Of a DNA stretch of 64,000 nucleotides, positions 1 to 43,249 are shown one piece after another. Position numbers and translations under genes: made by a program. Under the pieces are notes generated by a model. The model ran no database searches. It worked only from the letters and a program-made list of their open reading frames with translations, and was not told where the DNA came from. Source of the DNA: a virus. Its lineage: Duplodnaviria > Caudoviricetes. Every line of letters begins with the position of its first letter. Positions within the stretch are counted from its first letter, which is position 1. Location: positions 1 through 64,000 of the IMG/VR virus record IMGVR_UViG_3300005439_000017. One strand, written 5' to 3'.

Positions 1-213
1 AGATATTATATTAGTAAAAGTGGAGAAACTTTTATAAAAGTATATGATAATGGAAAAACAGAATTTATTCATAAAGATTATCTTGTAACAATTTTTAATA
101 GATTTGAAGATAAAGAATGGAAAGATTACAACATAGATTACTCTTTCTATATTAAAGAGTGTTACAAAGAAATAAATAATATAATTCTAAAACAATTAAG
201 TTTGAAAATATGA
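1..213 (+). CDS. C-terminal end (partial) of crAss-type family B DNA polymerase
   Basis: Not in the ORF track. Frame 1 is open from base 1 to TGA 211-213: RYYISKSGETFIK...FNRFEDKEWKDYNIDYSFYIKECYKEINNIILKQLSLKI. This resembles the RYYxS...YxIxYxxYIxE...QLSL tail I recall for crAss-like PolB; it overlaps the next ATG (ATGA). Confidence 0.6.
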   Translation, partial: RYYISKSGETFIKVYDNGKTEFIHKDYLVTIFNRFEDKEWKDYNIDYSFYIKECYKEINNIILKQLSLKI

Positions 214-614
214 AAACAAATAAAAAACAAAATCTTGAAATAACATACGAATATAGTGCGTTAACTATAAAACGTAACGGAAGTTATATGATACACATAA
301 ATGTTTCAGAGAGTGATATATCTTGTGGAGTAAAACAATTGTATAGTCTTCCTAGTGATGGTAGTATAGTTTTCCAAAGAAATACTATTAATGAAGTTAA
401 GGAGATATTTGAAAAAGGAATTAAACTTATTAAAAAAGGATGGAAAAACAAATATGGTGATTATGAAGATGAGTGTGCTTTTGTAATTTGTAGCAATACA
501 ACAGATATTTCTTCATCAAAAATTAATGCAATTCTTGATGAATTAGCAACTTCTAAGTCTAGAATAAGAGTAAATCCTAATACTGGGAATAAGATTAAAG
601 TTTGGATACTATAA
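210..614 (+). CDS. hypothetical protein (134 aa)
   Basis: ORF coupled to both neighbours (ATGA overlap upstream); no recognisable motif. Confidence 0.6.
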   Translation: MKTNKKQNLEITYEYSALTIKRNGSYMIHINVSESDISCGVKQLYSLPSDGSIVFQRNTINEVKEIFEKGIKLIKKGWKNKYGDYEDECAFVICSNTTDISSSKINAILDELATSKSRIRVNPNTGNKIKVWIL

Positions 615-814
615 TGATTATAGAAGAAATTAAAGATAATAATACAAATTTTGAGTCTGTAGAATTAAAAAGAATGTATAACGGAGACAATACTCAAAAA
701 CCATATTGTAAGAAGCATGGAGCCATGAATAAAGTATCCAAGTTTGAAAATGGTGGATATTGGCGTTGTCTTTATAATAATTGTAGAACAGGCTGTATAG
801 AAATAAACAAATAA
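602..814 (+). CDS. small putative Zn-binding protein (70 aa)
   Basis: CKKH...WRCLYNNCRTGC Cys/His pattern; packed in the operon. Confidence 0.5.
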   Translation: MDTIMIIEEIKDNNTNFESVELKRMYNGDNTQKPYCKKHGAMNKVSKFENGGYWRCLYNNCRTGCIEINK

Positions 815-823
815 GAAGACATA

Positions 824-1645
824 ATGGTAAAGAAAAAAATAACTAATTTTAGACCAAATGTAAGGTCTAGGCATCCTTCTCATTCTAATTTGAGAACTTT
901 ATTACCTTTATTTCCTTTTCGTTCTGTTATTAGATTAGGATCTACTACAGATATGGTAGATACTATTAGTAATGGAGGAAATAGGATAGAGATTAATACC
1001 GTTAATGCTGTTAAGAACAGTTCTAGCAAGCTATTAATGAAGCAGTGTTTCACTGACAATAAAGTAAAAACAGCAGAATGGGTTAAAGGAAATAGTTTAA
1101 ATGATTGGAAGTTTGATTTTCCAATTGTTGCTAAGTCTTTTTATGGTAGTCGCGGAACAGGGAATACCTTAATTAAATCCAAAGAAGAGTTAGACAAATT
1201 TATAAAAGGTAAAACTGTAAATAATTATATTTTTGAGAAATATCATAACTACACGAGAGAATATAGACTTCACTGTACAGAAGATGGATGTTTCTATACT
1301 TGTAGAAAAATGCTAAAGTCCGATTGTCCTGATACAGAGAAATGGCATAGACATGACGATAACAGTATCTGGATTCTTGAAGAAAACGAACAATTCGATA
1401 AACCAACTAATTGGAAAACTATCGAATCTGAATGTGTAAAGGCTTTAAAAGCTGTAGGATTAGATATTTGTAGTTTTGATGTAAAAGTACAAGGAACTAA
1501 AGATAGTAAGGGAAATCAAAGAAAAGATCCTGAATTTATCGTTATTGAGTGTAATAGTGCTAGCTCCTTTGGAAATGTAACTGAACAAAAATATCTTGAA
1601 ACACTACCAAAATTGTTAATGAAAAAATGGAAACAATCAAAATAG
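824..1645 (+). CDS. ATP-grasp amide ligase (RimK-like / phage type)
   Basis: NAVKNSSSKLLMKQCF, FPIVAKSFYGSRGTG (K + glycine loop), IFEKY...EYRLH, GLDICSFDV, and FIVIECNSA (ExN metal-binding motif). Confidence 0.85.
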   Translation: MVKKKITNFRPNVRSRHPSHSNLRTLLPLFPFRSVIRLGSTTDMVDTISNGGNRIEINTVNAVKNSSSKLLMKQCFTDNKVKTAEWVKGNSLNDWKFDFPIVAKSFYGSRGTGNTLIKSKEELDKFIKGKTVNNYIFEKYHNYTREYRLHCTEDGCFYTCRKMLKSDCPDTEKWHRHDDNSIWILEENEQFDKPTNWKTIESECVKALKAVGLDICSFDVKVQGTKDSKGNQRKDPEFIVIECNSASSFGNVTEQKYLETLPKLLMKKWKQSK

Positions 1646-2658
1646 TTACAGCACCAGATGGTGATGAAAGTAAAATATATCTAATAGAGCATAGCAGTTG
1701 TTCAGATCATTTGATATATAATAATTATTATAATGATAAACTTACTGATAATCAAAAAAAGCAAAATTATTCTTTTTATTACAAAAACAGTAATGATAAA
1801 ATCGTAGAGGATGTAGATTTAGAAGATGAAAGATATGTTAATATCAAATTAGCAAACTCAAATACTTTTCAAATTATACCTAAAGCATGGATATCTGATG
1901 AAAGAATTGATGCCTTTAAATTATTAATTAGAAAAATCAATTCTGTCGGAAAAGGCACTATAAAACTATCATATCCAAAACCTTTTATATTTAATTTAAA
2001 GGATAATTTGTACTTTACTAAAGAATACGAATACTGTGATCCTTATAACAAGAAGCTCAGTAAATTAATGGCTAAAGATACTTTTCAAACTGCCAAAAAT
2101 TTAGTAAATTCATACGGTACAGAATATTGGAGAATAGATATTGAAGGCACTCTAAAACAAGATGAGCTAAAATATAAAAAACTATTTCTATTTACTATTT
2201 TCAGATCTTTTTACTATTTTAGAGGAAAAAAGACTTTCTATTCTGATTTGATAATAGAGTTCATAAAGAATGGATTTAATATTATTCAAGCTGCAACATT
2301 TGCAACATTATATATTTATTTTAAAGGGAGTAGTGCGGAAGAAACAATGGGTATGAATGGAAGAACTTTCCCTTTAGAAATAAATAGATATGTAAATATA
2401 GACAAGTTTAAAAAGAACAAATCATTAATCGGAAGCTATTTAGCCACTTATTTTGATTATGGTAATAACCAACAGGCTAATAAAGAATACAAAGGAGTAC
2501 TTATGAAGATAGAAGATTACTTAAAGTACCCACCTTTATCAGGTATGATGTTATCAAAGGATAAAGATGTAAAAAAGGCTGTACTAGCTAAAGATTTTGA
2601 AAAGCTAAAAGAAATATGTGACAAATATGATAAAATAGATCATGATGAAAAGAGATAA
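1627..2658 (+). CDS. hypothetical protein (343 aa) within the amidoligase operon
   Basis: Long ORF overlapping both the ATP-grasp gene and the class-I GATase gene; no motif recognised. Confidence 0.7.
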   Translation: METIKIVTAPDGDESKIYLIEHSSCSDHLIYNNYYNDKLTDNQKKQNYSFYYKNSNDKIVEDVDLEDERYVNIKLANSNTFQIIPKAWISDERIDAFKLLIRKINSVGKGTIKLSYPKPFIFNLKDNLYFTKEYEYCDPYNKKLSKLMAKDTFQTAKNLVNSYGTEYWRIDIEGTLKQDELKYKKLFLFTIFRSFYYFRGKKTFYSDLIIEFIKNGFNIIQAATFATLYIYFKGSSAEETMGMNGRTFPLEINRYVNIDKFKKNKSLIGSYLATYFDYGNNQQANKEYKGVLMKIEDYLKYPPLSGMMLSKDKDVKKAVLAKDFEKLKEICDKYDKIDHDEKR

Positions 2659-3313
2659 GAAAATAGTCATACCTGGGTGGATGGTAGGAGATAACTCTTT
2701 TGGAGTTACAAAAGCCTATCTGGAGTACTTTTCAAGATATGGTAAAGTCCATATACTTCATCCAAGTAATGAAATAGTAGAAGATGCTGATCTTCTTGTT
2801 TTACCAGGAGGAAAAGATGTTTTAACTACCAGATATGGACAAATTCCATCAATGCATACAGGACAGCCTGATATGATACTTGAATGGTTCGATCATACTC
2901 TACTTCCTAAGTATATAGATATGGGAATTCCAATCTTTGCTACTTGTAGAGGTATGCAAACTCTCAATGTCTTCTTTGGAGGATCATTAAAACAGCATTT
3001 ATATGGACACCCATATTCAACAGAATGGAGAGGAGAAAGAGTTCATGAAGTTTATACACCGGAAGACTATGCAAGATTTAAAGCTAGTACTAAGAAGAGT
3101 AGTGTAAAACCCCATATGAAAGTTAATTCTTTACATCATCAAGCTATAGATAAACTTGGTGAAGGTTTAATACCTTTACTTATATCTAATGATGGTATTA
3201 TAGAGGCTATAAAACATGAAACTTTACCTATTTATGGACAACAGTTTCATATAGAAGAAATGTTGATTAGAGACAAACTTTTAGAAGATCTTTTAAAAAT
3301 TAACGAAGAATAA
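2642..3313 (+). CDS. class I glutamine amidotransferase / gamma-glutamyl hydrolase (Peptidase C26, PuuD-like)
   Basis: LVLPGGKDV oxyanion strand, FATCRGMQTLNVFFGGSL nucleophile elbow (Cys), VNSLHHQAI, and QFHIE (His-x-Glu). Confidence 0.9.
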   Translation: MMKRDKKIVIPGWMVGDNSFGVTKAYLEYFSRYGKVHILHPSNEIVEDADLLVLPGGKDVLTTRYGQIPSMHTGQPDMILEWFDHTLLPKYIDMGIPIFATCRGMQTLNVFFGGSLKQHLYGHPYSTEWRGERVHEVYTPEDYARFKASTKKSSVKPHMKVNSLHHQAIDKLGEGLIPLLISNDGIIEAIKHETLPIYGQQFHIEEMLIRDKLLEDLLKINEE

Positions 3314-3317
3314 ATTT

Positions 3318-4160
3318 ATGATAAAATTATCAAAAGATATTAAAATAGGATGTGATCCTGAATTTTTCCTTATAGATGAACAAGGAGAACCTCAATCTGC
3401 TATAGGTCTTATAGGAGGAAGTAAAGAGAATCCGACCTCTATTGGAAGAGATTGCTATATTCAAGAAGATAATGTAGCTGTAGAGTTCAATGTACCCCCT
3501 TGTGATAATTCTAAAGATTTAGGAGAGTATATAAGGTATACTGTAGACTTTATAGAAGGTCTTATATATATACTACATTTAAAACCGCATATTGTTCCTT
3601 CTTGCCATTTCAAAGAGGATCAACTATTACATCCAATGGCAAAAGCTTTTGGATGTACACCAGATTATTGCGCCTGGAATGATGGAGAAATGAATGATTC
3701 TCCTGAACCACCAGAATCACTAAGAACAGCAGCAGGGCATATTCATATAAGCTTCCCAGAAGCAGATATGAAGGAAGAAACCAATAAGATGGAATTTAAA
3801 ATGGCCTTTATTAAGGCATTGGATCTATTCTTAGGAGTTCCTAGTGTTGTATTCGATACAGATACTGAAAGACGTAGCGTATATGGAAAAGCTGGCTGTT
3901 TTAGAGATAAAATGTGGGGACTAGAATATAGAGTATTATCTAACTTCTGGATAAGAGATCAAAGTGCTATTGAATGGGTATATGAAAATGTTCAAAGGGC
4001 TTACAATTTCACTAAGGAAGGAAATAGAATCACTCCAGATATTGGAAGTCGAATTATATGGGCAATTAATGGAAATGACATAGATTTGGCCAACAAATTA
4101 ATTAACGAATTTAACCTAAGCAAAATATGTGCGGCATCGCTGGATACAGTTCTGAAGTAA
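3318..4160 (+). CDS. phiEco32-like COOH-NH2 ligase type 2 (glutamine-synthetase-like fold)
   Basis: IGCDPEFFL, QEDNVAVEFN, FGCTPDYCAWN, LRTAAGHIHIS, DLFLGVPSV, RRSVYGKAGCFR, and GLEYRVLSNFW. Confidence 0.9.
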   Translation: MIKLSKDIKIGCDPEFFLIDEQGEPQSAIGLIGGSKENPTSIGRDCYIQEDNVAVEFNVPPCDNSKDLGEYIRYTVDFIEGLIYILHLKPHIVPSCHFKEDQLLHPMAKAFGCTPDYCAWNDGEMNDSPEPPESLRTAAGHIHISFPEADMKEETNKMEFKMAFIKALDLFLGVPSVVFDTDTERRSVYGKAGCFRDKMWGLEYRVLSNFWIRDQSAIEWVYENVQRAYNFTKEGNRITPDIGSRIIWAINGNDIDLANKLINEFNLSKICAASLDTVLK

Positions 4161-5824
4161 ACTTCAACACAGATAAATTAAAACTATTAATACTATACAA
4201 TGAAAGTAGAGGAGAAGACGCTACAGGAATGTGGATAAAAAGAAATGGTATTATTAAAGTGAATGGAAAAGCATCTGAAAAATTCATTCCAGACATTATT
4301 ATACCAGAGAATACTATGGCTATTTGCCATACCAGAAAAGCAACAAGAGGAGCTAAGATTACAAAAAATGCTCATCCATTTAGATATGGAAATATAATCG
4401 GTTGCCAAAATGGTATGGTAAAGAATGTTTGGGATCTTTGCAAAGAAAATGATTTAAAATATGTAGATATAGATGTTGATAGTCAGGTTATCTATGCTTT
4501 GATGGATAAAATTAAAGCTGATAATCCCAACACATATATTGAAGAAACCATCAAAAAGATCAACCAGGAGACAGCTTTATTATTCACAGACTTGGATACC
4601 CCTGATGTATTATATGCTTATAGAAATAAAGATAGACCTTTATTTAGAGGTTTACTGAAGTTTTCTGAACAACCTCAAATGTATATAAGCAGCATCAAGG
4701 AATCTTTAGAAGCTATTGGGTGTGACAATATTAAAGAGTTTAAAGAGGAATATCTCTATTCTATTCAAAATGGTAGAATTTTAGGAACTCCTAAAAAATT
4801 AAAAATTCCTAGTTTTACTACAGTAGGATCTTATAACAACTATCCAACATATGGAAATTATGGTCAGCAAACGGTTAACTTTACGAAAACTGATATTGTA
4901 AAAGATTTCGAAGATACTTTAAAGAAATCTATTGCTAAAGCAAATAGTAATTCCAGTATTACAAACTATACATCAACAAACTCAAGTTCAAATTGTAGGA
5001 TAGTACCTAACAACATACTTGCAGTAGGTGATAAATGTATGATACTAACTGAAGGTAAGTATAGAGGAAAAATGGGAACTCTGAGAATATTCTATCCACA
5101 AAATGGTCAAATATCAACATCTTATTTAAGTAATGCTCCCTTTGCAAGTAAAATCGGAAGTAACTGGTCTATAACAATTGAGATGGAAGGGCATAAAGTT
5201 TATGACGTTATTCCAACAAAAGATCTACTTTTGTATAAGACAGCTCAGGGCGAATTCGTTAAATCAATGTTAGAATTACAAGAATATATTAAAATCACTG
5301 AAGTGACAACAAACAAATCTATAGAGGATTTCAAAGTTCATCAAATAGTATATTTACTAGTAGATGATGAATATTTAAAAGCACAGATAGTTACTATCTA
5401 TAGTCTAGGTCAAGGTAACAGAAGGATGAGTCTGCAATTATGTGATGGTGTAAAAATAGACAATAGTTCGTTTGTGCAAATTAACAACGATTTTAGTAAT
5501 GTATACGCAACAATACCTAAAAAAGACGACATGGAAGATCCGCAGGAGAATTCCGAATCTCTTTACGATACAATAGATGATATCAAACAAAGTTTAAAAA
5601 AGTTTGGGGTAATAGATGATACTGGAACTTTAACAATCTGTGAACAAGTAGAGGAAGATATGCAATGTCTGGAAGACATGGTTGAAGATATGACGATTTC
5701 AAGAGAAAAAATACTTGAAAGTATTAATCTCTTTAAAGCTAATCTTTTATTAGCTGCAGAAACGTTTGCAACTCAATTGTATGAAGAAGATGAAAGAAAA
5801 AGAGGTATAACTAATAAAGTGTAA
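4127..5824 (+). CDS. class II (Ntn) glutamine amidotransferase with long C-terminal extension (KOW/SH3-like modules, acidic tail)
   Basis: N-terminal MCGIAG (Cys1 after Met removal), RGEDATG, CHTRKATRG, NAHPF, QNG, DVDS; then an S/N-rich linker and VGDKCMILTEGKYRGKMGTL (KOW-like). Confidence 0.9.
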   Translation: MCGIAGYSSEVNFNTDKLKLLILYNESRGEDATGMWIKRNGIIKVNGKASEKFIPDIIIPENTMAICHTRKATRGAKITKNAHPFRYGNIIGCQNGMVKNVWDLCKENDLKYVDIDVDSQVIYALMDKIKADNPNTYIEETIKKINQETALLFTDLDTPDVLYAYRNKDRPLFRGLLKFSEQPQMYISSIKESLEAIGCDNIKEFKEEYLYSIQNGRILGTPKKLKIPSFTTVGSYNNYPTYGNYGQQTVNFTKTDIVKDFEDTLKKSIAKANSNSSITNYTSTNSSSNCRIVPNNILAVGDKCMILTEGKYRGKMGTLRIFYPQNGQISTSYLSNAPFASKIGSNWSITIEMEGHKVYDVIPTKDLLLYKTAQGEFVKSMLELQEYIKITEVTTNKSIEDFKVHQIVYLLVDDEYLKAQIVTIYSLGQGNRRMSLQLCDGVKIDNSSFVQINNDFSNVYATIPKKDDMEDPQENSESLYDTIDDIKQSLKKFGVIDDTGTLTICEQVEEDMQCLEDMVEDMTISREKILESINLFKANLLLAAETFATQLYEEDERKRGITNKV

Positions 5825-5825
5825 T

Positions 5826-7331
5826 ATGACAACAATTAGTGAAACGAAAACAAAAAATAGGTCACAAATAGTTACTACTATATCGGGAAAGGAAATAGAA
5901 AGAGAGAAATGTAAGAAAATTCTCAAAAATGGAGAACCCTATTTTCATGAAATAGGAGTAGATTGTTTCCTTATAGGAGATAAATACGTATCTAAACACT
6001 TTAACAGAATTGAAATAGATCAATCTACAGGAGAGTATTTCTGGATATCTAAAATGGGAAATATAGTTACTGATGTACAAAATAGTGAACTTATATTTGG
6101 ATATAGTACAGACTCTTATCCTATTGGATTTAAAGATTATAATAATAAACAAATCTATTGTCTAAATAAAGAAATCTATAACAAAGTAGAGAAGTACCTT
6201 GTAGAATGTCCTTTCACAGGTGAGGTCTTTTTTAAGAAATCTCCTGTTACTAAACCAATGATTTTCAATCCTGAACAGGATTGTTACAATAATATAGTAT
6301 CTAGTAAGACAGCTAAAATTAGAAATTATTCAGCTGTAGAAAAAACAGAATTAGGAATAGAATCTAAAACATTTCAAAATACTGGAGGACTATCTTATAC
6401 TTGGGGAATTGAGATGGAGATGAGCGATGGAAAGTTGAGTAAAAATGAAGCTATAAACAATAATCTAAATATTCTTGTAACTAAAGATGGTTCTTTAACT
6501 TCTAATGAAGGAAGAAGATATGGTGGCGGAGAGATTGTAACAGGAGTATTTACTGGAGATGCTGGAATTGAACAATTAAAGAAGATTACTAGTATTTTGG
6601 AAAAGAGATGTTTAGTAAATCAAACTTGTTCAACTCACGTTCATGTAGGAGTACAAAATCCTAGTGACGAGTTTACAGTATATGCTTATGCTTTGGGATT
6701 AGCTCTTGAAAAATCATTAAATACACTTCTTCCTCATTATAGAAGAACAACCAGTAATCAATATTGCAGAGGTCTTAAAGTATTGAGATTAGATCAATAT
6801 AGTGCTTTTAAACAACACTATGTTCCTGAAGGATCTGAAAAAGATACTAATAAATCTATGTATAGAAGTTTTATACTTCAACAATATAGAAGGATCTTTT
6901 ATTGGTTATCTGGAGGTAATGAATTATCTCCCGATTGTAATCGCAAATTTAATCATCCAAAAGGGAACAAATGTGGATACGATCACAGTACTCCAAGGTA
7001 TTGTTGGTTAAATCTCATTCCTTGCAATTTTAACACAAGAGGAAACAATGTATATACTATAGAAGTTCGTAATTTTAGTGAAACTAAAAACTTCACAAAG
7101 ATTAAAAATTGGCTATTATTATGTTTAGCTTTTGTATATTATATTGAAAATAAACAATCTGAAATATTAAAATATGTAGGTACTAAAAATACTATTGGAT
7201 GGAGAAATATTCTAAGTGCTGCATATAGTAATACTCCAAAACTTTTGGAAGAATTAACAAAATATTTCAAAGAAAGAGAATATTTCTTTGAAGCAGAACA
7301 TAGAAAAGAGGAGGATTTTAAATGTGCTTAA
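5826..7331 (+). CDS. putative amidoligase (Amidoligase_2, GS/GCS-like fold) with ~190 aa N-terminal extension
   Basis: TWGIEMEM, KDGSL, GGEIVTG, VNQTCSTHVHVG, RYCWLNL, and TIEVRNFSET...IKNW: the ExE, DxS, E, HxH and ExR residues typical of COOH-NH2 ligases. Confidence 0.8.
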   Translation: MTTISETKTKNRSQIVTTISGKEIEREKCKKILKNGEPYFHEIGVDCFLIGDKYVSKHFNRIEIDQSTGEYFWISKMGNIVTDVQNSELIFGYSTDSYPIGFKDYNNKQIYCLNKEIYNKVEKYLVECPFTGEVFFKKSPVTKPMIFNPEQDCYNNIVSSKTAKIRNYSAVEKTELGIESKTFQNTGGLSYTWGIEMEMSDGKLSKNEAINNNLNILVTKDGSLTSNEGRRYGGGEIVTGVFTGDAGIEQLKKITSILEKRCLVNQTCSTHVHVGVQNPSDEFTVYAYALGLALEKSLNTLLPHYRRTTSNQYCRGLKVLRLDQYSAFKQHYVPEGSEKDTNKSMYRSFILQQYRRIFYWLSGGNELSPDCNRKFNHPKGNKCGYDHSTPRYCWLNLIPCNFNTRGNNVYTIEVRNFSETKNFTKIKNWLLLCLAFVYYIENKQSEILKYVGTKNTIGWRNILSAAYSNTPKLLEELTKYFKEREYFFEAEHRKEEDFKCA

Positions 7332-7999
7332 TAATAGCTAAACCACAAAAAATAGCATATAACGCTAAGAAAATAAACGAATACATCAAAAAAGGATATG
7401 CTGTTAATAGAGATGGGTTAGGATTTGCCTATAAAAAGAGATCTCAAAATTCAGTTACCATAAGAAGAGGATTTAAAAGTGCTGAAGATATTATAGACAC
7501 TTTGGATTCTTTAAAATTTAGTAAAGACGATGAATTAATAATTCATTTAAGGATGGGTACATGTGGAGAGAAGTCCATAATTAATAATCACCCATTTCCT
7601 ATAACTAAAGATGTAAATCTTCTTACAAAAGAAGAGATTATAACCTCTGTAGGAGCTTTTGCTCATAATGGAATTATGAATCCTTTTTCATATTCTAATT
7701 CTAAATATTGTGATAGTTATAATTTTGTTAGAGACTTTTTATTTGAAACAACGACTAAGGACGATAATACAAAAGATTTCTGCTATAATGTGCTATATGA
7801 TATAAGACAGGAATGTAAAACTTTAAAAGGGTTCTACGATGTTATAGATAAAATGCCTCTGTTTGGTTCAAATAGATTTGCATTTTTAACAGGAAGGGGG
7901 TTATTAGTTACAGGAGATTGGTGGAGAGATAATCATGGTATATTATTGTCTACAAAAGCATCAGATTCAGCTAAAAAATATTATGAACAATGGAAATAG
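7322..7999 (+). CDS. second class II glutamine amidotransferase (stand-alone, YafJ/GATase_4-like)
   Basis: MCLII (Cys1), NRDGLGFAY, IHLRMGTCG, NNHPF, FAHNGI, and DS. Confidence 0.85.
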   Translation: MCLIIAKPQKIAYNAKKINEYIKKGYAVNRDGLGFAYKKRSQNSVTIRRGFKSAEDIIDTLDSLKFSKDDELIIHLRMGTCGEKSIINNHPFPITKDVNLLTKEEIITSVGAFAHNGIMNPFSYSNSKYCDSYNFVRDFLFETTTKDDNTKDFCYNVLYDIRQECKTLKGFYDVIDKMPLFGSNRFAFLTGRGLLVTGDWWRDNHGILLSTKASDSAKKYYEQWK

Positions 8000-8373
8000 G
8001 TAAAATATATAAAATAAATCTGCAAAATAGTCCTTATAATGGGAGAGAGGCTATTCCCTATAGAAAACAACCAGGTGGAGGAACAGGATATGACTGTGTA
8101 GTGGTGGGGAACGGTGAAGGTATATCTTTGAGAGATGATCAGATTGTTATAAATAATCATTCTAGTAAAACTATAAAAGAGGAGATAAGTAATATTGAAA
8201 GTAGAAAAGAGTTCTTAGAATATGTTCTTGATAATATCAAAGATTTGGAAAAGGATGAGTTTACTGAGAAAGAACTAAAAGAAATGGTAATTTTCAGAAA
8301 GATAGATATGATTAGTAGTGGTAAAGAGAAGCTTGATAAGAAAAGTCTAGCAAAATTAATCAGCTCATTATGA
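7990..8373 (+). CDS. hypothetical protein (127 aa)
   Basis: Overlap-coupled ORF; beta-rich N-terminal half and charged helical C-terminal half. Confidence 0.6.
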   Translation: MEIGKIYKINLQNSPYNGREAIPYRKQPGGGTGYDCVVVGNGEGISLRDDQIVINNHSSKTIKEEISNIESRKEFLEYVLDNIKDLEKDEFTEKELKEMVIFRKIDMISSGKEKLDKKSLAKLISSL

Positions 8374-8573
8374 TAGAAGAATATCTTGCTATATTACTTA
8401 CAGAACATCCAGAGTTAGAAGGTGAAAGTTTAGATATTATAAAACAAAAGCTAAAAGAATACTTTAATGTAGATTTTACAACTAAACAAATAGCCGATGT
8501 ATATCAACTATCTAATCAATTCGAAACTATAAACGAGGATGGTGGAGAGGAGGATTTTTTCGATGACTTCTAA
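8370..8573 (+). CDS. small acidic hypothetical protein (67 aa)
   Basis: ATGA overlap with the upstream gene; ends EDGGEEDFFDDF. Confidence 0.55.
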   Translation: MIEEYLAILLTEHPELEGESLDIIKQKLKEYFNVDFTTKQIADVYQLSNQFETINEDGGEEDFFDDF

Positions 8574-8745
8574 TCTATTGGAAAGTGATTTCTTAATTAT
8601 TCCAGACGAAGAGACAACAAATATAAAAGTTAAAGGAAGAAAGGAGGAAAAAGATAATAAAGATAGCAAAGAAGATGAAGATGAAACAGTTGGTAATCCT
8701 TTTGGATTATTAGGAGAAGAACCATATCAATTTTATGGAGATTAA
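8539..8745 (+). CDS. small acidic hypothetical protein (60-68 aa; alternative ATG at 8563)
   Basis: Fills the gap up to the GTG at 8749; D/E/K-rich. Confidence 0.45.
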   Translation: MVERRIFSMTSNLLESDFLIIPDEETTNIKVKGRKEEKDNKDSKEDEDETVGNPFGLLGEEPYQFYGD

Positions 8746-8748
8746 ATC

Positions 8749-9294
8749 GTGAAATTCGTTATAAATATAAACACGTTATTAAAATATTCTATAACAGCTG
8801 AACAATATAGTTTTCTATATCTTTTGGCATCTGAAGAGTTAAGTATTCTTGAGAAATATCTTAGTTTGTTCAATAGTGTATCTTTAGAAGATTTAGATCG
8901 TCTAAAAAATATTGGTTTAATAACTTTTATTAGCTCTAATATAAGCGATATTAAAGTTACCAACAAAGCGAGAGATATACTAGAATTAAATAAGCTAGAT
9001 AATTACATTACAGAACTTTGGAAATTATTTCCTTCTATGACTCCTAATGGTAGGAAACTAAAACAATGTTCTAAGAAGACAGCTGAAATAACATACAACA
9101 AATGTCATGAGAACATAGAAGAAAATCATAACAAGATAATGGAAGCATTAAATAAAGAAATAGAACATAGAAGATTAAATGGTTCTATGGATTATATGCA
9201 GAACATTAAAACATGGTTATATAATAGAAGCTATGAAGCTTTTATGGAAGATAATAACGATAATTCGTTAGATATTGCCCCAAAATTCGTTTAA
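8749..9294 (+). CDS. putative replisome organiser / replication initiator
   Basis: GTG start; wHTH-like N-terminal half; ELWKLFP and YMQNIKTWL motifs like phage replisome-organiser C-terminal domains; directly upstream of DnaB. Confidence 0.6.
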   Translation: MKFVININTLLKYSITAEQYSFLYLLASEELSILEKYLSLFNSVSLEDLDRLKNIGLITFISSNISDIKVTNKARDILELNKLDNYITELWKLFPSMTPNGRKLKQCSKKTAEITYNKCHENIEENHNKIMEALNKEIEHRRLNGSMDYMQNIKTWLYNRSYEAFMEDNNDNSLDIAPKFV

Positions 9295-9992
9295 TTCGTT
9301 AAAATTAAAGCATATAAGAGATGCTACTATAGAAGCAATAGATTATATCGATAAGCGTAGAAAAGGGCTTATAAAGCCTCTTAAAACACGCTGGAAGAAG
9401 ATAAATCAATATATGCCTATAGAGTGGCATACTCTTATTGCTCTGTGTGGCATATCTGGAAGTGGGAAATCCAGTATAGCCAATGAGTTAGAAACTAGTC
9501 TATTTGATTATAATCCTGATGAAAATTTTGCAGTCTTAAGTTTTAACCTTGAAATGCAATCTATGAAGCAGGTAGGTAGAAAGATAAGTTCTAAACTCAA
9601 GAAGTCAGTATCAGAAATATATAGTAATAATGAAAGATACCTTGATGATTCTTCATTTGAAGAAGTAAAGGATAAAGCTAGACAAATAGCAAATTATAGA
9701 ATATATTACTCCGATATCCCGGATACAATAGATGGTATGAAAAAAACCATCATAGATTTGTATAATTTATTAAAATGTCCATTAGTTATTATACTGGATC
9801 ATACAAGATTGATTAAACATATAGGTGATGAGAAATCCTCATTAGAAAAGCTAATGGCTACCTGTATAGAATTAAAAAAACAATATCCATTTTGTATAAT
9901 ACTGGTAAGCCAACTAAATAGAAATATTGAAGATTCCGATAGAATAAAACAAGCATCTTTACATTTTCCAACAAGATCTGATCTTTTTGGGT
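9275..9992 (+). CDS. dnaB: DnaB-like replicative helicase, exon 1
   Basis: TTG start; Walker A GISGSGKS, FNLEM, Walker B IILDH, and VSQLNR, ending in PTRSDLFG-T where homology stops abruptly. Confidence 0.85.
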
Positions 9993-10009
9993 CGAAAATA
10001 GCAAAAATT

Positions 10010-10041
10010 ATTGGAATTGTAACAAAGAATTCGTATATTTG
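10010..10041 (+). promoter_or_regulatory. Bacteroidota-type sigma promoter for the intron endonuclease
   Basis: TATATTTG (TAnnTTTG, -7 element) at 10034-41; TTG at 10011-13 with a 20-nt spacer; 16 nt upstream of ATG 10058. Confidence 0.55.
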
Positions 10042-10057
10042 AGAAAATATATGAAAA

Positions 10058-10795
10058 ATGAAAATAAATGAGGAGAAAATAATACAACTTTCTAAAGAGG
10101 GATATAGTAATAGCCAAATAGCAATAATTATGAATATGAATCCTAAAAACTTAACGAAGTATAGGTTTAGCAAAGGTATAAAATGTTCAAGGTATGATAA
10201 ATTAGAGATTACAGAAGAACAACGTCAAGTTATATTGGGATCTATATTAGGAGATGGTTATATAGGAATAGATTCAAAAATAGCTAAAGCTGCTAGAATG
10301 GCTATAAAACATAGTATTAAACAGAAGAAATATGTGGAATATAAGTATAGTATATTAGAAAATCTATGTAAAAAATTAACAATAGATAAGAGAAGGGACG
10401 AAAGATTTATAAACCCCGACTATGAAATGGTTTCTTTTAGAACAATGAGCCATCCAATATTTACAGAATATATGAATAAGTTTTATAAAAATCGTAAAAA
10501 AAGAATACACGAGGAAATTTTTAGTATATCTGGATTAGGATTGGCTATATGGTTTATGGATGATGGATATTTAGATCATAAAACTGTAAAATTTGCAACT
10601 AATTGCTTTACAATAGAAGATTTAGAAACTATTCAAAAGATGTTCTATACTAAATTTAATATAGAGATCACGATTCAAAAGAAACATACTATACGAATTA
10701 GACAGAATTCTACGGCTAAATTTGTTAATATTATTTCTCCTTTTTTAATAGAAAGTATGTATTATAAAATTCCAATACAATACAGGCCCAAATAA
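10058..10795 (+). CDS. intron-encoded LAGLIDADG homing endonuclease (LAGLIDADG_2 type) with N-terminal HTH
   Basis: QVILGSILGDGYI and GLAIWFMDDGY motifs; N-terminal KEGYSNSQIAIIMNM HTH-like segment; lies in the intron P1 loop. Confidence 0.9.
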   Translation: MKINEEKIIQLSKEGYSNSQIAIIMNMNPKNLTKYRFSKGIKCSRYDKLEITEEQRQVILGSILGDGYIGIDSKIAKAARMAIKHSIKQKKYVEYKYSILENLCKKLTIDKRRDERFINPDYEMVSFRTMSHPIFTEYMNKFYKNRKKRIHEEIFSISGLGLAIWFMDDGYLDHKTVKFATNCFTIEDLETIQKMFYTKFNIEITIQKKHTIRIRQNSTAKFVNIISPFLIESMYYKIPIQYRPK

Positions 10796-11022: not shown

Positions 11023-11219
11023 CTGATTCTATCTATCAAGGGTCAGATATAGTAGCTATAACCCATACACCAGCAAAACTAGGTATAATTAAATATGGAC
11101 CAGCAGGGTTACCAACTATGGGCAAGATTTTCTTGCATATAATAAAGAATAGAGATGGTGAACCTGTGACAATAACAATGATAGATAATCTACATCATAA
11201 TAGAGTAGATGAAGAATAA
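11023..11219 (+). CDS. dnaB: DnaB-like helicase, exon 2
   Basis: Missed by the ORF track. After splicing it reads (S)DSIYQGSDIVAITHTP...LHIIKNRDGE...DEE*, supplying the DnaB motif H4 continuation and the KNRxG arginine finger. 718+197=915 nt gives a 304 aa protein. Confidence 0.88.
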
Positions 11220-11544
11220 CATGTTCAAGAAAAATGATCAAGATAAACCAGATTTTACACAAATTCCACAAGAAGCTTTATTAGAAGTAGCCAAAGTATT
11301 TACTTTTGGTGGTAATAAGTATAACAATCATTTTAATTACTCTGAAGGAGGAGAATTAAGAAGATATGTTGCAGCTGCCAATCGTCATATAAATCAATGG
11401 CTCAGAGGTATTGATAATGACGAAGAAACAGATACTAATCATTTAAGTAACGCTATAGCTTCTTTGATGATGGCTTTGGATAATGTAAAAACTGGTAAAG
11501 GAGTAGATAATCGCAATAAATCGTATAATCGTAAAAATGAGTGA
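11209..11544 (+). CDS. dATP/dGTP diphosphohydrolase-like protein (DUF5664 family)
   Basis: KNDQDKPDF..IP..ALLEVAKVFTFGGNKY..FNY..G....RYVAAANRHI..W..G...DEET..NHL..A family pattern. Confidence 0.75.
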   Translation: MKNNMFKKNDQDKPDFTQIPQEALLEVAKVFTFGGNKYNNHFNYSEGGELRRYVAAANRHINQWLRGIDNDEETDTNHLSNAIASLMMALDNVKTGKGVDNRNKSYNRKNE

Positions 11545-43162: not shown

Positions 43163-43178
43163 TATATCTTATGTTTAG

Positions 43179-43249
43179 CAGGAGTGGAGAGATTCGAACT
43201 CCCATCAACGGTTTTGGAGACCGCTATTCTACCCTTGAACTACACCGCT
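43179..43249 (-). tRNA. trnW: tRNA-Trp (anticodon CCA), 71 nt, no encoded CCA end
   Basis: Minus strand: AGCGGTG TA GTTC-AAGGGTA-GAAT A GCGGT-CTCCAAA-ACCGT TGAT GGGAG-TTCGAAT-CTCTC CACTCCT G. Full cloverleaf with one C3:C70 mismatch. Confidence 0.9.

Follow-up and report, generated by a model that had tools for sequence, protein, structure and literature searches.

The gene array and its enzymes

We analysed a 64,000-nucleotide stretch of viral DNA, hereafter the window, which is the first 64 kb of the 84,019-bp linear IMG/VR virus record IMGVR_UViG_3300005439_000017. CheckV estimates this record to be ~67% complete. Near its start, the window carries seven co-directional open reading frames (ORFs) on the plus strand, named g1 to g7, at positions 824-1645, 1627-2658, 2642-3313, 3318-4160, 4127-5824, 5826-7331 and 7322-7999. 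They overlap by 19, 17, 34 and 10 nt at four junctions and are separated by gaps of 4 and 1 nt at the other two. An initial annotation of this DNA had delimited the same seven ORFs and read them as an ATP-grasp ligase, an orphan, a class-I glutamine amidotransferase (GATase), a COOH-NH2 ligase of the phiEco32 type (ligase-2), a class-II GATase, an Amidoligase_2 protein and a second class-II GATase. Pfam, PHROG, NCBIfam or ESM Atlas matches bear out the enzyme families for six of the seven genes. Judging from family membership, the core of the set (ATP-grasp, ligase-2, long class-II GATase and Amidoligase_2) is the phage cassette of the phiEco32/LUZ24 type and not a new system.

The phage itself is crAss-like, as first proposed. 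The assignment is supported by the major capsid protein, which is 39-42% identical to Crassvirales major capsid proteins among the top listed matches; 147 records match in all, mostly from crAss-like, Bacteroides and Flavobacterium phages. The opposite strand carries a 3593-aa ORF and structural genes. At the very beginning of the window (positions 1-213, plus strand), an open-ended frame of 70 residues matches the C-terminal ends of proteins of 637-647 aa from the crAss-like contigs L069 and L079, and PolB of Cellulophaga phage phi14:2. The record is therefore truncated inside a DNA polymerase gene, consistent with the CheckV estimate. With this polymerase end on one side and genes for DnaB, a Sak4-like ATPase, a primase and a PD-(D/E)XK nuclease downstream, the cassette has an early/replication location. 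Past position 7999 the array runs on into further overlapping small ORFs, and a promoter and terminator scan of positions 1-9500 gave sites no commoner than in shuffled sequence, none of which delimits the gene block. Because the array continues and no signal above chance bounds it, the “seven-gene operon” of the initial annotation is a functional grouping, not a mapped transcript.

Family alignments with 10-76 relatives served to assess the conserved residues of the six enzymes. The proteins of the window have every residue that proved either invariant or conserved to at least 90%, so that the catalytic motifs are indeed intact, as had been reported.

g3 (2642-3313, plus strand) encodes a 223-residue hydrolase of the class-I GATase fold that resembles Peptidase_C26 and PuuD proteins. 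The Pfam Peptidase_C26 match has an E-value of 6.6e-34 and a score of 118 bits, for a cutoff of 20.5 bits, as against 6.7e-13 and 49 bits for the generic class-I GATase family. Its best PDB relatives are 3fij (Lin1909), SpuA (7d4r) and PuuD (6vtv), and its top NCBIfam matches are gamma-glutamyl-CDP-amidate hydrolase and gamma-glutamyl-GABA hydrolase. The triad C102/H203/E205 is invariant in 69 sequences. Its nearest relatives thus cleave gamma-glutamyl amides rather than feed ammonia to a synthase.

g4 (3318-4160, plus strand) encodes a 280-residue COOH-NH2 ligase type 2 of the phiEco32 type, predicted to be a minimal carboxylate-amine ligase of the glutamine synthetase/glutamate-cysteine ligase (GS/GCL) fold. 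It matches PHROG 3815 at 4e-67 and Pfam COOH-NH2_lig (PF14395) at 1.8e-07, above cutoff, and is 36% identical to phiEco32 gp86. It keeps E56, H141, H143, R185, R196, E203 and R205, positions at which the family alignment is invariant or nearly so (at least 90%). The family profile finds no relative in the PDB by sequence. Searched with Foldseek, the AlphaFold model (pLDDT 92.9) matches only GS/GCL-fold proteins, namely glutamine synthetases, gamma-glutamylmethylamide synthetase (GmaS), plant GCL and YbdK (best TMq 0.54). Entry 4hpp is among these structural matches.

g6 (5826-7331, plus strand) encodes the Amidoligase_2 protein (501 aa; PF12224 at 1.2e-11, PHROG 2443). A GS/GCL-fold catalytic domain at residues ~190-490, of which residues 220-437 make up the Pfam match, follows a beta-rich N-terminal domain. 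The model is good in the catalytic part (pLDDT 70-93) and poor in the N-terminal part (~30-68), for which no family match was found. Foldseek returns YbdK-type ligases and GS, the same neighbours as for g4, plus a faint match to PafA (prob 0.35). The invariant residues E196, E198, D221, E236, H271, H273, E413 and R415 are all kept. As for ligase-2, no solved relative of the amidoligase family was found by sequence.

Two genes encode N-terminal nucleophile (Ntn) proteins of the class-II GATase type. g5 (4127-5824, plus strand) is the long one, with a catalytic domain at residues ~1-225 and an unconserved C-terminal region of ~340 aa. It matches PHROG 4736 at 1.7e-22 and GATase_6 at 2.9e-08, the latter match being confined to the N-terminal ~220 residues, and weakly, far below cutoff, NCBIfam EgtC at 4.8e-06. 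It starts with MCGIAG and keeps R70, N95-G96 and D118. Residues 240-565 have no homologue in other long class-II GATases even at E<10 and no Pfam match even at E<=5, which argues that g5 has no conserved fused synthase domain. A glycine/lysine-rich stretch of this region looked KOW-like by eye; the candidate was dropped on the same two results. We also observed that the long class-II GATases of L001 (phi14:2 g040), L008, L024, L028, L039, L069, L077, L079 and L080 carry a hydrophobic leader of 25-37 residues before the catalytic cysteine, while g5 of the window begins directly with MCGI. No methionine stands beside the cysteine in the leader-bearing proteins, so that the leader must be translated and then removed, or serve as a membrane anchor.

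g7 (7322-7999, plus strand) is a small stand-alone protein of 225 aa, similar to class-II GATases of the Ntn type and translationally coupled to g6 through a 10-nt overlap with its stop. It has no Pfam, PHROG or NCBIfam match. It begins with MCLI, and C2, R77, N116-G117 and D131 are invariant in 10 sequences. It falls in phage GATase_4-like clusters of the ESM Atlas (score 0.96, TM 0.79), and its family profile gives only weak matches in the PDB, to PurF and GlmS glutaminase domains. It is a single domain with no fused acceptor (synthase) domain. The initial annotation had made glutamine amidotransferases of all three cysteine enzymes. Since g3 is nearest to gamma-glutamyl-amide hydrolases and g5 lacks a conserved synthase domain, hydrolase roles appear at least as likely.

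g1 (824-1645, plus strand) encodes a RimK-like ATP-grasp ligase of 273 aa (PHROG 2599 at 6e-24, with weak Pfam ATP-grasp and RimK matches). It is 51% identical to phi14:2 g038 and 44% to cr108_1 gp028, and it keeps K69, E146, R148, K162, D219, E242 and N244, which are conserved in the family alignment.

The remaining gene, g2 (1627-2658, plus strand; 343 aa), is an orphan, as first described. It has no Pfam, PHROG or NCBIfam match, and no relative was found by tblastn in phages, nor among 5.8 billion proteins in a word-indexed search, nor among 1.84 billion representatives with full HMMER. The ESM Atlas gave no relative either (scores at or below 0.77), and the ESM model has a pLDDT of 0.38. 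Only ~1e-6 open frames of 343 codons are expected by chance in this AT-rich genome, which indicates that g2 is a real gene.

Gene pairs conserved in related phages

Relatives of ligase-2 were found by tblastn in 312 phage records, including LUZ24-like Pseudomonas phages, phiEco32-like coliphages, and Vibrio, Aeromonas, Proteus and other phages. A search of IMG/VR with g4 as a single sequence found nothing; a profile built from five sequences was needed and gave relatives on at least 399 contigs. Among 185,579 prokaryote species genomes, relatives occur in only 46 pattern-matched loci, nearly all on contigs of metagenome-assembled genomes (MAGs). Where such a MAG contig extends far enough to reveal the neighbouring genes, it mostly carries this cassette and is phage-like. 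Scarcity in cellular genomes, together with the cassette-bearing MAG contigs, indicates that the ligase-2 family is essentially phage-borne. The suggestion that the window holds an undescribed system therefore does not stand: the core is named in Pfam (PF14395, PF12224) and recurs in these phage records, a near-identical gene order is annotated in phage cr108_1, and a shorter one in phi14:2.

The cassette was reportedly predicted from genomes by Iyer, Abhiman, Burroughs and Aravind in 2009 (Mol Biosyst), an attribution taken from later citations. The literature that we found offers annotations and speculation, and no biochemical characterisation of the cassette, in agreement with the initial view that its product is not established. 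The same genes are annotated in UFV-P2 and LUZ24 group genomes (PMC3890496) and in OM43 phage genomes (PMC10580990). The latter paper cites the 2009 analysis for a cell-wall modification by amidoligase and GATase that would prevent superinfection. In the directed evolution of a Bruynoghevirus, both evolved lines had missense changes in the amidoligase and the adjacent class-II GATase (PMC11450229). These mutations fit a role of the pair in infection and say nothing on its chemistry.

In order to compare gene neighbourhoods, we collected the loci of the 80 top-ranking IMG/VR matches and of four annotated phages (84 loci, with near-duplicate contigs included in the counts) and labelled their ORFs by iterated profiles seeded from the window's proteins. 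The core genes are co-conserved. ATP-grasp is found in 80 of the 84 loci, C26 in 77, class-II GATase in 78 and amidoligase in 80. A gamma-glutamyl cyclotransferase (GGCT) is optional, being present in 27/84.

Two gene orders were observed. The first, in contigs of 40-55 kb, reads C26, ligase-2, (a ~206-aa protein), amidoligase, class-II GATase, ATP-grasp, (GGCT). The second, in crAss-like contigs of ~92-97 kb and in phi14:2, reads (GGCT), ATP-grasp, C26, ligase-2, long class-II GATase, amidoligase, with C26 missing from phi14:2. Whichever the order, the labelled gene immediately preceding ligase-2 is C26 (73/84 loci). The two lie within 400 bp of each other in 47 of 77 loci, and amidoligase and class-II GATase do so in 74 of 78. 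By the same measure, ATP-grasp and C26 are neighbours in 11/74 loci and ligase-2 and class-II GATase in 10/78. Because adjacencies persist across the two orders, the conserved units are C26 with ligase-2, amidoligase with the long GATase, and a mobile ATP-grasp gene that is sometimes accompanied by GGCT.

The small Ntn gene is an addition to the second unit. It overlaps the amidoligase stop by 10-13 nt in nine loci, the window and L008, L009, L024, L028, L039, L050, L069 and L079. One of them, the IMG/VR contig L050, reads ATP-grasp, C26, a 339-aa unknown, C26, ligase-2, class-II GATase, amidoligase and Ntn protein, with no GGCT. Nor was a GGCT found in the 84-kb record of the window, where PF06094 gave no match at E<=1 and the GGCT profile none, in keeping with the initial observation.

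Two further arrangements were noted in these loci. On five MAG contigs (L106, L110, L111, L113 and L116), a mini-cassette made of ligase-2 (302-346 aa), C26, GGCT and C26 stands alone, with no amidoligase, class-II GATase or ATP-grasp gene; this suggests that the ligase-2/C26 unit can work by itself. In crAss-like relatives devoid of the small Ntn gene, a gene of the uracil-DNA glycosylase (UDG) superfamily directly follows the amidoligase gene (L001 16706-17416, L057 14483-15226, L086 16045-16683, and similar cases). It overlaps the amidoligase stop in phi14:2, L056/L057 and L077, and thereby takes the position of g7 in the window.

The place of g2, between the ATP-grasp and C26 genes, is a variable slot. 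In L050, L069, L079 and cr108_1 it is filled by proteins of 281-339 aa that are unrelated to g2. Compared with eight same-slot proteins, g2 gave Smith-Waterman Z values all below 3. Probabilities from hhalign were below 1%. Some same-slot proteins of other genomes are weakly alike (Z 4.7-6.5), and none is like g2. From these comparisons g2 looks to be a lineage-specific protein in a variable slot, to which no role can be assigned.

Outside the cassette, four features of the window may be mentioned. A 66-aa cysteine-rich ORF (614-814, plus strand; CKKH ... C-x5-C-x3-C), which resembles a zinc ribbon by eye, stops 10 nt short of the ATP-grasp start; neither Pfam nor NCBIfam gave a match, and the fetched loci yielded no homologue. 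At 9275-10795 (plus strand), a DnaB_C helicase ORF of 255 aa, short for DnaB, is directly followed by a LAGLIDADG_2 homing endonuclease ORF, an arrangement compatible with an intron or an intein-like element within the helicase gene. A 111-aa protein (11209-11544, plus strand) matches PF18909, the N-terminal domain of dATP/dGTP diphosphohydrolase, at 1.5e-25. Finally, the structural genes are accompanied at 43178-43249 (minus strand) by one tRNA gene, for tRNA-Trp (CCA).

Possible chemistry of the cassette

We consider it probable that these genes represent, in a crAss-like phage, the widespread amidoligase cassette of the phiEco32/LUZ24/phi14:2 type, whose three ATP-dependent carboxylate-amine ligases and three cysteine-nucleophile amide hydrolases would build and trim a glutamate/glutamine-linked amide. 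This reading is preferred because every enzyme type of the set makes or breaks amide bonds and because the nearest characterised relatives act on glutamate or glutamine. In particular, the GS, GmaS, GCL and YbdK-type neighbours of the ligases are known to acylate amines with the gamma-carboxylate of glutamate, or to join it to ammonia.

The enzymes would work in three units. The first would associate the PuuD-like C26 hydrolase with the minimal GS-fold COOH-NH2 ligase (g3 and g4). The second would be made of Amidoligase_2 and the long Ntn GATase (g6 and g5) with, in the window's sub-lineage, the small Ntn protein coupled to the ligase stop (g7). The third would be the RimK-like ATP-grasp ligase (g1), which has its GGCT companion in 27/84 loci but not here. 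Both GS-fold ligases would convert a carboxylate into an acyl phosphate and couple it with an amine; the structural neighbours suggest, by analogy, that the carboxylate may be the gamma-carboxylate of glutamate. The ATP-grasp ligase could add a further amino acid. The long GATase would either deliver ammonia from glutamine to the neighbouring amidoligase, for which it is the most plausible supplier, or hydrolyse a gamma-glutamyl amide. Cleavage of gamma-glutamyl amide bonds may fall to C26 and the small Ntn protein, as well as to GGCT where relatives have it, and would remove a gamma-glutamyl protecting or carrier group or recycle the product. The net product in the infected cell would be a glutamate/glutamine-linked amide compound or a short peptide tag. 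We infer these substrates, the order of the steps, the product and its presumed benefit to the phage from the enzyme families, their catalytic residues, the GS/GCL fold and the gene pairs described above.

Several points weigh against this reading. The gamma-glutamyl chemistry is drawn by analogy at ~10-14% sequence identity to solved enzymes, both GS-fold families are devoid of solved or assayed members, and no copy of the cassette has been linked to a product, a substrate or a phenotype. With near-duplicate contigs among them, the 84 loci do not count independent events. As the record is ~67% complete, GGCT or other partner genes may lie in the part that it lacks. Finally, the C26 and Ntn enzymes keep all residues of plain glutaminases, so that ammonia-channelling amidotransferase pairs would also be possible.

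Other functions were weighed against the same data. The cassette may tag or remodel a macromolecule, by marking proteins of the host or the phage with a peptide in the manner of pupylation or of RimK, or by amidating peptidoglycan precursors or adding extra amino acids to them, the form in which a later paper sums up the 2009 proposal. We regard this as rather unlikely. RimK glutamylates the C-terminus of a protein, and the ATP-grasp ligase of the window is RimK-like. PafA and Dop have a GS-like fold, in line with the faint PafA match of g6. A substrate or an adaptor could be provided by the protein of the slot, which evolves fast (g2 and its positional counterparts), and a cell-wall role linked to superinfection is what the 2009 analysis is cited for in PMC10580990. 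However, both GS-fold ligases have small-molecule enzymes rather than PafA as their structural neighbours. In Pfam, no Mur-ligase, peptidoglycan-binding or protein-recognition family is matched by any of the seven proteins. Shared C-terminal tags were not seen either: no 5-mer in the last 15 residues is common to more than two of 670 ORFs, pairs being those expected by chance, and the genome has no family of small proteins with a shared tail.

Alternatively, the genes could be auxiliary metabolic genes that re-route host glutamine/glutamate or polyamine pools with no dedicated product, for instance through reversible gamma-glutamylation of polyamines as in the Puu and Pau pathways. The pairing of C26 with a GS-fold ligase mirrors PuuD/PuuA and SpuA/PauA, and 4hpp is among the structural matches. 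Several phage papers also treat amidoligase and GATase as auxiliary metabolic genes. Yet three different ligases and up to four hydrolases exceed what pool management needs. In addition, ligase-2 and the cassette are essentially phage-restricted rather than borrowed host genes, and their identity to cellular enzymes is very low. This alternative seems improbable to us.

The initial annotation had instead paired each ligase with a glutaminase (ATP-grasp with the class-I GATase, ligase-2 with the long class-II GATase, amidoligase with the small one) for multi-step, glutamine-dependent amidation of a macromolecule. A ligase served by a separate glutaminase is an established enzyme design, as in MurT/GatD. 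Moreover, all three cysteine enzymes keep glutaminase-type catalytic residues, and both g4/g5 and g6/g7 overlap in the window. The coupling of amidoligase to the small Ntn protein is kept in nine loci, so that this pair survives. The two other pairs are not retained, as neighbours in 11/74 and 10/78 loci, respectively, to be compared with 47/77 for C26/ligase-2 and 74/78 for amidoligase/class-II GATase, and with C26 directly before ligase-2 in 73/84. The 118-bit score of g3 as Peptidase_C26, against 49 bits as an amidotransferase subunit, and its hydrolase relatives do not favour an ammonia supplier, and GGCT, which accompanies the set in relatives, is unable to supply ammonia. Taken as a whole, this scheme has little likelihood, and the target that it gave to the pathway (peptidoglycan, capsule, protein tag or nucleotide) and the purpose, superinfection exclusion or anti-defence, are speculative.

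Hypermodification of the phage DNA or of a nucleotide precursor with an amino-acid or amide group, as a means to evade restriction, was also envisaged. In nearly all phages the cassette lies in a region of replication and nucleotide metabolism, between the polymerase end and DnaB/primase in the window and from primase to UDG in relatives. The idea is supported by Lee et al. 2021 (PMC8989533), who report viral contigs in which thymidine-hypermodification genes co-occur with amidoligase and amidotransferase domains. However, the 84-kb record of this incomplete genome has no thymidylate-synthase-type hydroxymethylase (PF00303), ThyX (PF02511) or PurZ; 5-HMUDK and aGPT-Pplase, which go with a starting enzyme of this kind in thymidine-hypermodification clusters, were not searched by name. 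No base-modification enzyme was recognised with Pfam among 10 plus-strand proteins downstream of the cassette and 10 in the last 20 kb. Beyond their ATP sites, the cassette proteins have no detectable DNA-binding or nucleotide-binding domain. On an incomplete contig, this counter-evidence is weak. Such a function is quite doubtful. The same holds for a three-unit pathway for counter-defence or takeover, which would install and edit an amide-linked group (gamma-glutamyl or amino-acid) on one specific target, be it a nucleotide or a macromolecule of host or phage, with the slot protein as lineage-specific substrate or targeting adaptor in an arms race.

The building and trimming of a glutamate/glutamine-linked amide thus remains our favoured reading. 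The cassette is among the most widespread phage enzyme modules that have no known product. It occurs in LUZ24-like therapeutic Pseudomonas phages, phiEco32-like coliphages, marine phages and crAss-like phages, including one from the human gut. The copy in the window leaves that picture unchanged, and the comparison of loci sharpens the experimental question. C26 is to be assayed with ligase-2, and amidoligase with the long GATase and also the small Ntn protein, instead of the pairs implied by local overlap in the window. Phage phi14:2 infects a cultured host, Cellulophaga baltica, in which the crAss-like version is testable.

Comparison with known systems

In butirosin biosynthesis (ATP-grasp BtrJ and GGCT BtrG) and in ergothioneine biosynthesis (GCL-type EgtA and EgtC, a hydrolase of class-II GATase fold), a gamma-glutamyl group is added and later removed. 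The likeness to the window is one of enzyme logic only, since the cassette has no carrier protein, pyridoxal phosphate enzyme, methyltransferase or sulfoxide synthase. A second parallel is with the PuuA/PuuD and PauA/SpuA polyamine systems and the GmaS and GCL/YbdK enzymes, with which the cassette shares a GS/GCL-fold ligase encoded together with a C26 gamma-glutamyl-amide hydrolase. Here, however, the ligases are much smaller (280 aa) or bear an additional domain at the N-terminus, and their identity to these enzymes is ~10-14%. The cassette encodes neither oxidase nor dehydrogenase steps and is phage-restricted.

The link to phiEco32-type neighbourhoods made in the initial annotation is well founded. 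The window shares with the phiEco32/LUZ24-PaP3/tf-type cassette its four core families (PF14395, PF12224, ATP-grasp and long Ntn class-II GATase), the early/replication context and the adjacency of amidoligase and class-II GATase (g5 and g6 are 1 nt apart). The order differs, since in the window ATP-grasp comes first and class-II GATase precedes amidoligase. In addition, phiEco32 has GGCT and no detectable C26, while the window has C26, an orphan and a small Ntn protein beside the long one, with GGCT not found in its record.

The closest layouts are those of two Steigviridae (Asinivirinae). The human-gut phage cr108_1 (Pipoluvirus rarus) carries primase, ATP-grasp, two unknowns (329 and 300 aa), a GATase (C26), the COOH.NH2 ligase, class-II GATase, a 486-aa amidoligase homologue and UDG. 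As in the window, no GGCT is annotated in this cassette stretch; its slot proteins have no detectable similarity to g2. Cellulophaga phage phi14:2 (Akihdevirus balticus) has a shorter form devoid of C26, with GGCT, ATP-grasp, ligase, class-II GATase and amidoligase, then UDG. In both phages the cassette lies between primase and UDG, and the UDG-superfamily gene follows amidoligase. In the window it lies just after the polymerase gene, and the small Ntn gene takes the place behind amidoligase. The layout of the window is a minor variant of publicly recorded layouts. Its peculiarities, namely no GGCT in the record, a second small Ntn protein and an orphan in the slot, are common to a handful of crAss-like and uncultured phages, except for the orphan itself.

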